Of a stretch of DNA of 64,000 bases, positions 24,234 through 27,440 are shown piece after piece. The position numbers and the translations under genes are program-made. The notes under the pieces are model-generated. The model was given only the letters and a program-made list of their open reading frames with translations, ran no database searches and had not been told where the DNA came from. The DNA is taken from the IMG/VR virus record IMGVR_UViG_3300013383_000004, positions 1 through 64,000 of that record; one strand, given 5' to 3'. Each line of letters begins with the position of its first letter. Position 1 is the stretch's first letter. Source of the DNA: a virus. Taxonomy: Duplodnaviria; Caudoviricetes.

Positions 24234-24455
24234 TTATTTAATATTAATTAAGTTGTTAAACCAATAATAACCACTTAATATAATAAATTCTCTTTTATTG
24301 ATAAAGGCTGTACAGATGGATATGAACAGAGTATTTATTGCTATTATACTTAAAAGAGTAAGAAAACTTACATTGTTTATACAAATAGATAGCATAAATA
24401 TTATAGCTGTAATCCATAAGAAGATACCTTTTATTGCTAATTTTATAGTTTTCAT
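24234..24455 (-). CDS. small membrane protein
   Basis: 73 aa, two hydrophobic segments. Confidence 0.55.
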   Translation of the reverse strand: MKTIKLAIKGIFLWITAIIFMLSICINNVSFLTLLSIIAINTLFISICTAFINKREFIILSGYYWFNNLINIK

Positions 24456-24603
24456 TGTTTTTTCTTGTTAAAATAATAAATAAATGTATGTAAACTAAGC
24501 CACAAAATGAATAAAATGATTAAAAAGTTTGCAGCTTCTATGAGATAATTTATGAGAAAATCTAACATTATAGTAAGTTAAAACAGTAAAAAGAGTTATA
24601 ATT

Positions 24604-24633
24604 AAAAGAGGGAGAGTTAAATACTCCCTCTTT
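24604..24633 (-). terminator. intrinsic terminator
   Basis: AAAGAGGGAG/CTCCCTCTTT stem just after 24641. Confidence 0.75.
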
Positions 24634-24640
24634 GTTATGC

Positions 24641-24949
24641 TTAAAGGCCGAGGGAAACGATTTCCCAACTATCCTGACCAGCCTTACATAGCTTATAGCT
24701 CCCACTGGCTAACTCAACTACCTGTAAATCATCCTTTTGTGCTGCAATTTGTTTAGGAGTCAGTTCTCCTAAATTACTGCTAAATCCTACAAAAGTAACA
24801 TCATCTCCTCTTTGAAAAACACAGCTCTTGAAAGCCTCTCCAGTCTCACTGTTCACAAAAGAGCCTACCTTCATGATACCATTGGCCTTAGCAAAGCTAA
24901 TAAGACTCCAAGAATCAACTATTCCATTATCCATGATAATAAAAGCCAT
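24641..24949 (-). CDS. small early protein, paralogue A1 (start may be ATG 24934)
   Basis: Strong similarity to 26579..26920 (GIV.SWSLISFA, GEAFKSC, FSSNLGELTP, LQVVEL, GSYKLCK). Confidence 0.85.
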   Translation of the reverse strand: MAFIIMDNGIVDSWSLISFAKANGIMKVGSFVNSETGEAFKSCVFQRGDDVTFVGFSSNLGELTPKQIAAQKDDLQVVELASGSYKLCKAGQDSWEIVSLGL

Positions 24950-25038
24950 TTCAGACTTGCTGTATAAACTAAGGTGTTATACTACCCAGCTGCAATATTA
25001 CATTAGATTACCAGAAACAGCTAACTTCCAAATAATCT
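24947..25038 (-). ncRNA. structured 5' leader (pseudoknot plus hairpin), copy 1
   Basis: Compensatory changes versus copy 2 in three helices. Confidence 0.65.
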
Positions 25039-25060
25039 TATTATTATCAAACTATAGGTG

Positions 25061-25077
25061 GAGTTCTGTTTAGATTA
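25061..25077 (-). promoter_or_regulatory. repeated motif TAATCTAAACAGAACTC (candidate early promoter)
   Basis: Identical copy at 25604-25620; variants at 27048 and 27823. Confidence 0.55.
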
Positions 25078-25316
25078 GAGTTAACACAATACAAGCTTAA
25101 TACTAAGCTATTGTGGTGATTAGATTAGTTAGGTTTAAGATACCGACACTTTTAATATAGTCTAACTTTTCTATTCTATGTAATAGTTCACATGATTTAA
25201 ACCCAATAGAGCAGCTCTAAGAAAGAAAAGAACCAAAAGAAAGAAACTATTATTTATTATTAATTTATATATTCCTAAAAGAAAGAAATATATAAAGAAA
25301 GAAAAGGGTTAAAAAT

Positions 25317-25341
25317 AATGCAGAGCACAAAGCCCTGCATT
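25317..25341 (-). terminator. intrinsic terminator
   Basis: AATGCAGAGC/GCCCTGCATT stem, U-rich tail on the minus strand. Confidence 0.65.
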
Positions 25342-25345
25342 ACTC

Positions 25346-25588
25346 TTATTTCCACAACAAGCTATCCAGTTTAGCTTTAGACTCATAGTAATCTTGAGGG
25401 TCAAAAGCATCAACCCAGTCATACTGACTATCTAAAGTATCAAGAAGTTCTTCAGTAGCTTTATTATAAGCATCATAAGCCTCAAGATACTTAACTGATT
25501 TAACTGTAGCAACACTATGCCCTGCTACAAAGCCTGCAATCATACCTAAGACAATAGATAAGATGCAAATAATAAGAGATTTTTTCAT
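25346..25588 (-). CDS. small membrane-anchored protein, paralogue B1
   Basis: N-terminal TM; KYLEAY...LLD.LDS.Y.W.DAFDPQDYY...KLDSL shared with 26285..26512. Confidence 0.85.
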   Translation of the reverse strand: MKKSLIICILSIVLGMIAGFVAGHSVATVKSVKYLEAYDAYNKATEELLDTLDSQYDWVDAFDPQDYYESKAKLDSLLWK

Positions 25589-25603
25589 ATCAAATGATAG
25601 GAA

Positions 25604-25620
25604 GAGTTCTGTTTAGATTA
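25604..25620 (-). promoter_or_regulatory. repeated motif TAATCTAAACAGAACTC
   Basis: Exact copy 15 nt upstream of the B1 start. Confidence 0.55.
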
Positions 25621-25795
25621 GACTTTATAAGTAATTAGATGATTGTTTAGACTATAGATTTTTAAGAGTAAATATTGTTTAGATTAAGGAGTACTTCTAA
25701 ATATTATTTACTCACTTTAGAATCAAAAGGAGTAACATCATCAAGGCTATCTATAATAAGTTTAATTATACCTCTCTTAATATTCCTTTTAATTA

Positions 25796-25829
25796 TTTGG
25801 TTATATCATTTTTTTTACTTACCTTTGCA
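25796..25829 (+). promoter_or_regulatory. Bacteroidota sigma70-type promoter driving an ORF-free region
   Basis: TTTGG...TACCTTTGCA. Confidence 0.75.
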
Positions 25830-26210
25830 CCAGTATACTTAGACTACATAAGTATGGTACAGATGGAATACTAGAATAAGACCTTCTGAAAGTCCCATTT
25901 AGCCTAGGTTTAGGAACTGCAGATATGAAATAATTATCAAACATAGCGGGGAGGTTGAGCCTAACTAAAAAGCTTAGTTATAAAGTCTATTTGCCCACCA
26001 AGTAGTTGTGAAAAGGTAGAGAGTAAAGAGGCCATAGGGGAATAAAAGTCAGCAATGACATAATAAACTCGCGGTAGACTGAAGATTCTAAGCAAGACTT
26101 ACCGAAAATTTTTATAATGTAAGGTAAGTGTGACAGGGGTGTTGCAATCGCTGGAGTATTTCTATGTCTCTTAATTAAAGAGTTAATAAAAGTTAATGCA
26201 ACACCTAAGA
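25830..26210 (+). ncRNA. candidate structured non-coding RNA
   Basis: Promoter upstream, terminator downstream, no ORF, several helices including a GCAA tetraloop. Confidence 0.55.
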
Positions 26211-26250
26211 AATAAAGAGTAACCTGTTAAATCAGTATGTCTTAAATATA

Positions 26251-26286
26251 AAAAAAATAGCAAGACGAATCTTGCTATTGTTTTTT
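26251..26286. terminator. bidirectional intrinsic terminator
   Basis: A-tract, AATAGCAAGA/TCTTGCTATT stem, T-tract. Confidence 0.75.
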
Positions 26287-26512
26287 ACATAAGGGAATCA
26301 AGTTTCTCATTATATATATAGTAATCTTGGGGGTCAAATGCGTCAGTCCAAGAGTACTTACTATCAAGAGAATCTAAGAGAGTTTCAGAGGCTTTATAAT
26401 AATTACCATAAGCCTCAAGGTATTTATTGGCTGTTTTAGTTGCATAGTTATTTCCAGCAACAAAACCTAATATAGAACCTAATATTAATGAAAGGATTAT
26501 TTTCATGTTCAT
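26285..26512 (-). CDS. small membrane-anchored protein, paralogue B2
   Basis: Paralogue of 25346..25588. Confidence 0.85.
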   Translation of the reverse strand: MNMKIILSLILGSILGFVAGNNYATKTANKYLEAYGNYYKASETLLDSLDSKYSWTDAFDPQDYYIYNEKLDSLM

Positions 26513-26542
26513 TTAGAATTTCAAGTTCATTTAGAATTTCAA
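26507..26542. repeat. 18-bp tandem duplication GTTCATTTAGAATTTCAA x2
   Basis: Exact direct repeat over the B2 translation start region. Confidence 0.85.
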
Positions 26543-26545
26543 GAT

Positions 26546-26572
26546 AAAAAGGGGAGCTCATGCTCCCCCTTT
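26546..26572 (-). terminator. intrinsic terminator
   Basis: GGGGAGC-TCAT-GCTCCCC with U-tract on the minus strand. Confidence 0.8.
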
Positions 26573-26578
26573 GTCATT

Positions 26579-26920
26579 TTAGAGTCCCAGGTCAACGTCT
26601 TCCCAGGAGCTATTGCCCTGCTTGCAGAGTTTATAGCTGCCCGTTTCAAGTTCCACGACCTGTAATTCGTCTTTAAGGTCAGCAATCTCTTGAGGAGTCA
26701 GCTCTCCCAGATTGCTACTGAAGGAGACAAGAGTCACCTCCCCTCCATCAACAAATGCACAGGACTTGAAAGCTTCCCCCGTTTGACTGTTTACAAAGGG
26801 GGCAACTTTCATTTGCCCATGCATTCTTGCAAAACTAATAAGACTCCAAGAATTGACAATCCCTACACTCTGTGTTTGAGGCTCTTGTGCTTGTTGTCTT
26901 TTAGCTTTAACGTTTCTCAT
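26579..26920 (-). CDS. small early protein, paralogue A2
   Basis: Paralogue of 24641..24949. Confidence 0.85.
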   Translation of the reverse strand: MRNVKAKRQQAQEPQTQSVGIVNSWSLISFARMHGQMKVAPFVNSQTGEAFKSCAFVDGGEVTLVSFSSNLGELTPQEIADLKDELQVVELETGSYKLCKQGNSSWEDVDLGL

Positions 26921-26930
26921 AATTTTTCCT

Positions 26931-27024
26931 CATTTCAGAGGCACTGCATGAATTAAGGCATCATGCTATCCTGCTGCATTACTATTATTTAGATAATTAA
27001 GAACAGCAAGCTCTTAAGTTATCT
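26931..27024 (-). ncRNA. structured 5' leader (pseudoknot plus hairpin), copy 2
   Basis: Covaries with copy 1. Confidence 0.65.
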
Positions 27025-27047
27025 TTTCAATTATCAATAAATAAGAA

Positions 27048-27063
27048 GAGTTCTGTTTGATTA
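27048..27063 (-). promoter_or_regulatory. motif variant TAATC-AAACAGAACTC
   Basis: 1-nt deletion variant, same spacing to the leader as at 25061. Confidence 0.5.
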
Positions 27064-27104
27064 AAAAGAAAGGGCAAGAAGACTGGTGTCTTCTCACTCT
27101 AAGC

Positions 27105-27383
27105 TTAGATGTCTGATGGAATACTATGTATTTCACAGTAATCTACGATAATACCATCATAGCAAAAATCACCCCACTCTTCATAGGGTTCACCACATTC
27201 AGTTGTTCCCCAATGACAGCAATTAAATGCCTTAAACAGTTTATTCTGTGCATACAGAATATATACATACTCAGCATGATAGTCTCCACCATTCTGAATA
27301 ACATCCAACACTACAGCCTTAATAGGCTTTTCTACATTAGGCACTTTAATTTTAATGATAGTGCCCTTTTCAACCTTTTCCAT
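27105..27383 (-). CDS. hypothetical early protein
   Basis: 92 aa ORF. Confidence 0.65.
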   Translation of the reverse strand: MEKVEKGTIIKIKVPNVEKPIKAVVLDVIQNGGDYHAEYVYILYAQNKLFKAFNCCHWGTTECGEPYEEWGDFCYDGIIVDYCEIHSIPSDI

Positions 27384-27440
27384 AATTATTTATTTTTTAA
27401 GTAGTATAGAGTTAGTGCTCTACACTACTTGTTATACATG

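Follow-up and report, generated by a model that had tools for sequence, protein, structure and literature searches.

A covarying, pseudoknotted 5′ leader RNA linked to a small-protein family of crAss-like phages

Two copies of a structured leader RNA

The viral record IMGVR_UViG_3300013383_000004 is a 96,755-bp virus with direct terminal repeats, and in its first 64 kb (positions 1 to 64,000, hereafter the window) we found two copies of a pseudoknotted RNA. Each occupies an ORF-free gap of ~115 nt between a promoter-like box and the open reading frame (ORF) of a small protein. Both copies are genuine members of a structured RNA family, with a structure far beyond chance, and this RNA is very likely a real cis-acting leader. 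The family is a previously uncatalogued one of a known general kind, the pseudoknotted 5′ leader. We read it, with moderate confidence, as an element that controls translation or mRNA stability in cis; that the control is feedback by the protein encoded directly downstream is a more tentative proposal, attractive but short of probable. Among public records the closest relative is phage cr116_1, a crAss-like member of the Steigviridae (Crassvirales), ~72% identical across the stretch concerned, where every counterpart gene is annotated as hypothetical. CrAss-like phages are among the most abundant gut viruses of humans and animals, and their post-transcriptional regulation is nearly uncharted. 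The RNA family is well supported and tied to a very widespread, uncharacterised phage protein family, and it offers a first functional clue to that protein.

Between 24600 and 27100 the minus strand holds two similar units, each made of a promoter-like box, the structured leader, a small ORF and a terminator-like hairpin. Their parts are as follows, where R1 is the covariance model described in the next section.

27074-27097, minus strand: terminator-like hairpin with T-run (terminator scan) closing the upstream unit, just before module B
27033-27061, minus strand: putative promoter box of module B, the 17-nt motif (27061-27045) and then TTAT..ATTGAT, identified from sequence
26918-27035, minus strand: leader RNA copy B (R1 match, 58.8 bits, E 6.6e-11), with the AUG at 26920
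26579-26920, minus strand: small protein B, 113 aa, unknown family, acidic C-terminal ..WEDVDLGL
26552-26569, minus strand: terminator-like hairpin with T-run after protein B (terminator scan)
25046-25074, minus strand: putative promoter box of module A, the 17-nt motif (25074-25058) and then CTATAGTTTGAT, identified from sequence
24932-25049, minus strand: leader RNA copy A (R1 match, 63.6 bits, E 5.1e-12), with the consensus AUG at 24934
24641-24949, minus strand: small protein A, 102 aa from the AUG at 24949 (inside P4) or 97 aa from 24934
24612-24628, minus strand: terminator-like hairpin with T-run after protein A (terminator scan)

The paired elements of the two leaders are these.

25038-25033 with 25010-25005, minus strand: copy A, outer stem of P1, with a 1-nt bulge at 25032
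25031-25026 with 25016-25011, minus strand: copy A, inner stem of P1, closing loop L1 (25025-25017)
25022-25017 with 24993-24988, minus strand: copy A, pseudoknot, AGCUGU with GCAGCU
24982-24977 with 24967-24962, minus strand: copy A, P3
24957-24954 with 24947-24944, minus strand: copy A, P4, GAAA tetraloop
27024-27019 with 26996-26991, minus strand: copy B, outer stem of P1, with a bulge at 27018
27017-27012 with 27002-26997, minus strand: copy B, inner stem of P1, closing loop L1 (27011-27003)
27008-27003 with 26977-26972, minus strand: copy B, pseudoknot, UGCUGU with GCAGCA
26966-26961 with 26951-26946, minus strand: copy B, P3
26941-26938 with 26931-26928, minus strand: copy B, P4, GAAA tetraloop

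From 5′ to 3′ the family fold runs through a long P1, an H-type pseudoknot formed from the P1 loop, a conserved junction, P3, P4 and the AUG, ~115 nt in all. P1 has 5-6 bp in its outer stem and 4-6 bp in its inner stem. What separates the two depends on the lineage: a single bulged nucleotide in that of the window, and in many others a purine-rich 2x2 internal loop (AA/GA). Its loop of 9 nt reads (G/U)UU and then RNNNGU, and the last six bases pair with GCNNNY ~12 nt 3′ of P1, a strand that is preceded by an A/U-rich linker ending in a near-invariant UAUU (or UAAU). Following the knot are a conserved UUAG or GUAG, P3, AG.. and P4, a stem of 4-5 bp with a closing U·U pair and a GNRA tetraloop (UGAAAU in the window, UGAGAU and UGGGAU elsewhere). 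Near-invariant unpaired bases are found at the knot, namely UUG in L1 and UAUUGC leading to the 3′ strand. The tetraloop, together with the conserved junction bases, suggests that P4 is held in a compact fold with the knot. Only P1 and the knot are universal and the 3′ half varies among lineages: as read from the sequences, in one lineage a different P3 and a UAAAG-looped hairpin take its place, and another has a single short hairpin ~9 nt upstream of the AUG.

A first-pass annotation of this DNA had described a duplicated minus-strand module with its helices, repeated motif and terminators, and all of these lie where it placed them. It had also noted compensatory helix changes between the copies, and leaders A and B, ~79% identical, do differ within their helices in a compensatory manner; the proteins that they precede are 71% identical. 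Its three helices were incomplete, as the GNRA-capped hairpin near the AUG, P4, had been missed. What it took for a separate invariant stretch, TCTGAAATG, belongs to P4 and covers the final base of the 5′ stem strand, the U-GAAA-U loop and the opening base of the 3′ strand, and P1 starts 19-20 nt after the 17-nt motif rather than 22-23 nt.

Covariation supports the fold

Folding of single sequences is uninformative alone (z about -1.5 to -1.8), and we therefore compared the leaders with those of relatives, whose DNA was taken from viral contigs, single representatives (one contig each), 80 metagenome contigs and two contigs of metagenome-assembled genomes. Inspected by eye, the upstream regions have the same architecture in many lineages, with differing helix sequences. 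For the covariance model R1 we used 17 leaders from outside the window's lineage (MAFFT alignment A6) and modelled the outer and inner stems of P1, P3 and P4; the pseudoknot was left out. R1 matches both window copies end to end (model positions 1-114) with the scores listed above, and P1, P3 and P4 are present in both in the same order, along with the conserved L1 and junction. There is no further match in the 64-kb window (next best E 0.96) and no third copy in the whole 96,755-bp genome, and in 840 kb of unrelated viral loci R1 found one true copy, in L047, which shares a contig with the already sampled L013.

The R1 matches with E < 5e-4 comprise 55 leaders, which fall into 27 clusters below 85% identity and form alignment A8; the two copies on which the first-pass annotation rested are thereby superseded. 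Standard pairs make up 97.6% of the pair cells in A8; the figure falls to 72% in shuffled data and to 32-59% when partners are displaced by 1-3 columns. Changes on both sides are seen in 23 of the 25 pairs. Because A8 was fitted to the nested helices, we repeated the count on A6, which is unfitted to structure, and there 95.5% of cells are paired and double changes occur in 20 of the 25 pairs. Covariation in a larger alignment, the feature by which the first-pass annotation proposed that its RNA be judged, thus holds in both.

The pseudoknot is the cleanest test since it is absent from every model. Across A8, 99.7% of its cells pair and four of the six pairs covary, the remaining two (G-C and U·G) being invariant. 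At least 10 complementary versions are found in A8 and three more in weaker or unaligned loci; examples are GACUGU/GCAGUC, AGCUGU/GCAGCU, UGCUGU/GCAGCA, GACAGU/GCUGUC, GGCUGU/GCAGCC, GGUAGU/GCUACC and GAAGGU/GCCUUC. Each version requires at least one separate double change, so that more than one inherited event is involved. The pseudoknot had originally been drawn with 8 bp, and covariation supports six of these; the extra U·G/U-A pairs are compatible in 88% of cells and do not covary. When a loose DNA pattern was run over the viral contigs, nearly all of the matches listed were due to chance, and a complementarity filter reduced them to known copies.

The leader is tied to one gene family

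At 49 of the 80 metagenome loci, which were fetched via the protein, the RNA lies directly upstream of the matched gene, as it does for both members of the small-protein family in the window. Five extra strong copies (L007, L008, L009, L144 and L150) each precede a second paralogue of the small protein, and one weaker additional match (29.6 bits, E about 1e-3), in L212, lies ahead of some other ORF. A contig of a metagenome-assembled genome labelled Flexilinea likewise has the RNA ahead of the gene (103.7 bits). At bacterial loci that encode fused versions of the protein's domain, R1 did not find the RNA.

A search of the window against Rfam 15 gives nothing beyond 4 tRNAs at gathering thresholds, and with E up to 10 the interval 24400-27400 gives five chance-level matches, none on either leader. 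In the literature on crAss-like phages (pseudoknots, structured RNAs, RNA motifs, early promoters) we found no description of the leader. Phage phi14:2, also crAss-like, produces abundant non-coding RNAs of unknown role and has a tripartite middle-promoter motif, and no leader-like element is reported in that study (bioRxiv 10.1101/2020.03.07.982082). The novelty claimed for the element stands after the Rfam search, and its first description, which presented it as a novel structured RNA associated with a small protein and containing a covarying pseudoknot, agrees with the negative Rfam result and the linkage across loci. The family is ready for submission and is a potential regulatory part for Bacteroides engineering.

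A probable control element at the ribosome landing site

The last hairpin lies close to the start codon: P4 is present in 43 leaders and always ends 7-10 nt short of the AUG, the distance being exactly 8 nt in 35 cases. With this spacing the leader most likely controls the amount of the small protein, and as the fixed 8 nt places P4 at the landing site of the 30S subunit we read the control as one of translation, perhaps of mRNA stability. No hairpin between the promoter-like box and the AUG is followed by a T-run in either copy (terminator scan), which makes transcription attenuation unlikely and sets both leaders apart from transcription attenuators and terminator-type riboswitches, where a leader hairpin is joined to a U-run. 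The flanks of each unit, a repeated promoter-like box and a terminator-like hairpin, also count in favour of a leader acting on its own mRNA.

In the mechanism that we favour, each copy would be the 5′ leader of a monocistronic mRNA, and the folded leader would set the rate of translation initiation, and possibly the mRNA lifetime, for the small protein. P4 would lie inside the ribosome landing zone, its accessibility depending on whether the knot core is locked by a bound factor. The likeliest such factor would be the encoded protein, giving autogenous feedback like that of T4 gene 32, T4 gene 43 and ribosomal-protein leaders. Confinement to one gene family is the pattern of an autogenous operator and makes feedback the first choice for the regulatory step. 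Bacteroidota hosts initiate translation largely without Shine-Dalgarno pairing, and a folded element fixed 8 nt from the AUG provides a testable handle on translational control in these bacteria.

Several observations weigh against this reading. The long leader precedes both paralogues in the window, but the gene family does not strictly require it: cr116_1 and several other phages have a different, short leader at their second paralogue. The window proteins are acidic, with isoelectric points of 4.5-4.9 (family median 5.6), and profile and structure searches found no recognisable RNA-binding family or fold; both points weaken the feedback step in particular and are why we hold it only tentatively. 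The protein's domain also occurs, sometimes repeated, inside BspA-type leucine-rich repeat (LRR) proteins, which gives no pointer to nucleic-acid binding. Conserved junction bases and a GNRA loop would equally suit a ligand-sensing or catalytic RNA. Finally, transcription from the upstream box, the position of the 5′ end and the timing of expression are points that we infer.

A leader that works without the protein would explain some of the same features. Here P1 and the knot would block 5′-end-dependent decay, or present the start region to ribosomes that do not use Shine-Dalgarno pairing, and expression would be constitutively high. P1 is roughly 10-20 nt from the promoter-like box and would thus be located close to the transcript's 5′ end, or at it; the units appear monocistronic, each with its own box and terminator; and the constant distance from P4 to the AUG fits this reading as well, as does the weak use of Shine-Dalgarno sequences in Bacteroidota. 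However, a generic stabiliser or enhancer would be expected at other strongly expressed phage genes and the RNA is seen only before this family, with just two copies in the 96.7-kb genome and every strong match elsewhere preceding a family member. Moreover, a third copy of the box, at 25617, fronts a small membrane-protein gene that has no such leader. We consider protein-independent action rather unlikely, although it is the foremost competitor of the reading that we favour.

The RNA might instead act on polymerase as a put-like antitermination element, or be released from the leader as a stable small RNA or as the partner in a ribonucleoprotein, in which case the linkage to the gene would reflect a shared function. 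Its place directly after a repeated phage-specific promoter-like box, with a terminator and then further same-strand genes downstream, would suit such a role, and phi14:2 provides a precedent for abundant non-coding RNAs in a crAss-like phage (bioRxiv 10.1101/2020.03.07.982082). Nevertheless, an antiterminator would leave the fixed 8-nt spacing to the AUG without a role, and there is no terminator or other 3′ boundary between the RNA and the ORF. On these grounds we regard both forms of this explanation as very unlikely.

Three other schemes for the leader were tried and rejected. The idea that P4 sequesters a Shine-Dalgarno sequence fails because the 3′ arm of the hairpin covaries freely (GGAG, GAAG, GAGG, GGCU, GCUG, ACAG). 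A conserved upstream ORF starting from UUG or AUG in the knot 3′ strand differs in frame and peptide among lineages. A switch between the knot and ACAGU after P3 is lost in the GACAGU and GGUAGU lineages.

Relation to known structured RNAs

The leader of T4 gene 32 consists of a 5′ pseudoknot operator and then an unstructured A/U-rich run that is bound cooperatively by gp32, a single-strand DNA-binding protein. This analogy, drawn in the first-pass annotation, holds in part. Both are 5′ leaders of phage mRNAs that open with a 5′-proximal H-type pseudoknot, both precede the gene of a small acidic protein to which the RNA is tied, and translational feedback, here only proposed, would be the common logic. 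However, in the crAss-like leaders the covarying hairpins P3 and P4 fill the stretch between knot and start in place of the unstructured run, there is no sequence similarity, and the crAss-like protein has no significant match to oligonucleotide/oligosaccharide-binding (OB) folds or single-stranded DNA-binding proteins (SSBs). Operators of ribosomal-protein genes and of the T4 gene 43/regA type are also similar in being structured, in lying at or next to the ribosome landing site and in being found only upstream of the genes that they control, but the present leader matches no Rfam leader family and its partner is not a known RNA binder.

Riboswitch aptamers such as SAM-II, preQ1 and fluoride share with the leader a compact pseudoknot, conserved loop bases at a helix junction and a location in a 5′ leader near the start codon. 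A riboswitch whose knot core recognises an ion or a small molecule, such as a host-state signal derived from a nucleotide, with P4 as the expression platform, would account for the cluster of near-invariant unpaired bases at the knot (UUG, UAUUGC), for a GNRA tetraloop suited to tertiary contact and for an aptamer-typical size with tight linkage to a single gene family. Homologous domains occur alongside kinases, AbiH and an SLFN-like helicase in regions resembling defence islands, which would also be in keeping with it. Against this, the leader has no match among Rfam riboswitches, is about twice the size of the three aptamers named and is phage-only, and we know of no phage-only riboswitch class. 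No metabolic or transport gene is linked to it and the context suggests no ligand; in addition, the 3′ half varies among lineages, P1 and the knot alone being universal. A riboswitch is accordingly quite improbable.

Self-cleavage, or a processing signal that trims the mRNA 5′ end, is more improbable still. Pistol ribozymes are often found in phage-like contexts, and in their fold a hairpin loop likewise forms a 6-bp pseudoknot with a downstream strand and is followed by a second hairpin, so that the order P1, loop pseudoknot, hairpin corresponds to the initial half of the pistol fold. UAUU and AGUG could form a closing helix, which would provide a pistol-like P2 around the knot 3′ strand and P3, and they pair in 89% of cells. 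Yet this helix does not covary and is not above shuffles, and we did not adopt it. The Rfam pistol model has no match at E up to 10, and the leader differs from pistol in its extra P4 and its much longer P1. The dinucleotide 3′ of P3 is variable (GU, GC, AU, GG or GA), so there is no conserved cleavage site and, in particular, no conserved G-U cleavage dinucleotide. A hammerhead core read in CUGAGAU of the P4 loop does not fit CUGANGA and is missing from one lineage.

More broadly, the RNA could belong to a phage-specific ligand-sensing or catalytic class, rather than being a protein operator, and through its knot core, conserved junction bases and GNRA contact could couple a signal of host state to a small takeover or counter-defence protein. 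We think this unlikely, a little less so than a riboswitch in the narrow sense. If true, the protein thus switched on would be one with a domain that also occurs in bacterial kinase and LRR proteins of defence-island-like regions.

The small protein

The small protein belongs to a family that comprises 1,231 clusters when grouped at 90% identity and 340 representative ones at 50%, and the stand-alone proteins have no match in Pfam, PHROGs, NCBIfam, PADLOC or a sequence-profile search of the PDB. AlphaFold2, using a 75-sequence alignment, predicts a core of six strands and two short helices with a pLDDT (predicted local distance difference test) score of 84.6 overall and about 95 over residues 21-100, the C-terminal tail having lower confidence. 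Structure prediction and Foldseek had been proposed at the outset as a check, and neither model has a significant fold match to solved structures (Foldseek on the PDB and a wide VIA-align search; best Z 4.9, best Foldseek E 0.07). Among the non-significant matches OB-fold proteins are the commonest: uS17, RPA, SSBs, LEF-3, HIN, anticodon domains of aminoacyl-tRNA synthetases and IF1. We take these weak matches as a hint only. Matches in BFVD are confined to uncharacterised crAss-like proteins. In the ESM Atlas the protein falls into its own cluster, with OB-fold entries at a TM-score of about 0.4 and one Bacteroidota reverse-transcriptase cluster at 0.58, which we treat as leads only.

Members of the family end in a tail of the form ..W(E/Q)D(V/I)DL(G)(L/I/F), and 59 of 75 have L, I or F as the last residue; in the window the tail is encoded at 24641-24670 and 26579-26608. 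Presumably the tail is comparable to the acidic tips of SSBs. Beta-clamp-binding motifs have the form Q-phi-x-[L/M]-[F/L] or Q-phi-x-[L/M]-x-[F/L] (PMC11139829). The aliphatic-x-L-(x)-L/F part of the tail fits this motif and the Q position is D. A search with PF00712 found no clamp encoded by the phage itself.

The domain is also found in bacterial multi-domain proteins (L218 265-2628; L220 6001-7587; P0158, P0294 and P0306). One architecture joins a Ser/Thr kinase, the kinase part being a PADLOC STK_OB match, to the domain and a BspA-type LRR region. Genes near the bacterial domain proteins include AbiH, an SLFN-like helicase, FRG and YhcG-type genes. These contexts suggest a link to phage defence or counter-defence.

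Boxes, neighbouring sequences and leader variants

Three minus-strand copies of the 17-nt motif are present, at 25074, 25617 and 27061, and the repeated box has the consensus TCTAAACAGAACTC.., then ..TAT..TTGAT. The third copy (25601-25617, minus strand) abuts the gene of an 80-aa membrane protein with its ATG at 25588, TTTGAT being followed directly by the ATG. With this geometry either the mRNA has almost no leader or its transcription start lies within TTTGAT or very close to it, a point relevant to the 5′ ends of the leader RNAs. For the ORF of copy A, 24934 is a possible start in place of the in-frame AUG at 24949.

Between the modules, ~650 nt (25620-26280) contain no convincing ORF and no Rfam match. 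Protein B is followed by a gene for a membrane protein of 75 aa, and immediately ahead of that gene an 18-nt unit, CTTGAAATTCTAAATGAA, is present in two tandem copies (~26510-26545, minus strand). Another repeated element, the octamer TAATCTAA, is found on the minus strand at 25005-25012, 25070-25077, 25119-25126 and 25620-25700; its placements include the promoter-like box, sites farther upstream and the 3′ arm of P1 in copy A, and it is confined to the window's lineage. This recurrence may reflect chance in A/T-rich DNA or an operator that acts at the DNA level.

The short leader of second paralogues is found at L001 5467-5503 (minus strand), L008 1462-1499, L144 754-790, L147 757-793, L152 754-790 and L210 796-832. 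It consists of AACCU(C) and then a 5-bp hairpin with AGGU in its loop, and the hairpin has three compensatory versions (GCAAU/AUUGC, UCACU/AGUGA and ACGGU/ACCGU). Judged from these sequences, the loop AGGU could pair with the upstream ACCU and form a second kind of small pseudoknot; the two strands are nearly invariant, and covariation is therefore uninformative on this pairing.

More G+C-rich leader variants precede members of the same gene family at L009 1381-1497, L010 1407-1521, L154, L156 and L161, at L014, L201-L203 and L211, and at L012, L148 and L167. One of these variants has a covarying P1-like helix, a GUUAGCAGU loop, P3 and a GAGA-capped P4, with no obvious partner for a knot. Two others are seemingly unrelated, yet they too are long and rich in hairpins.

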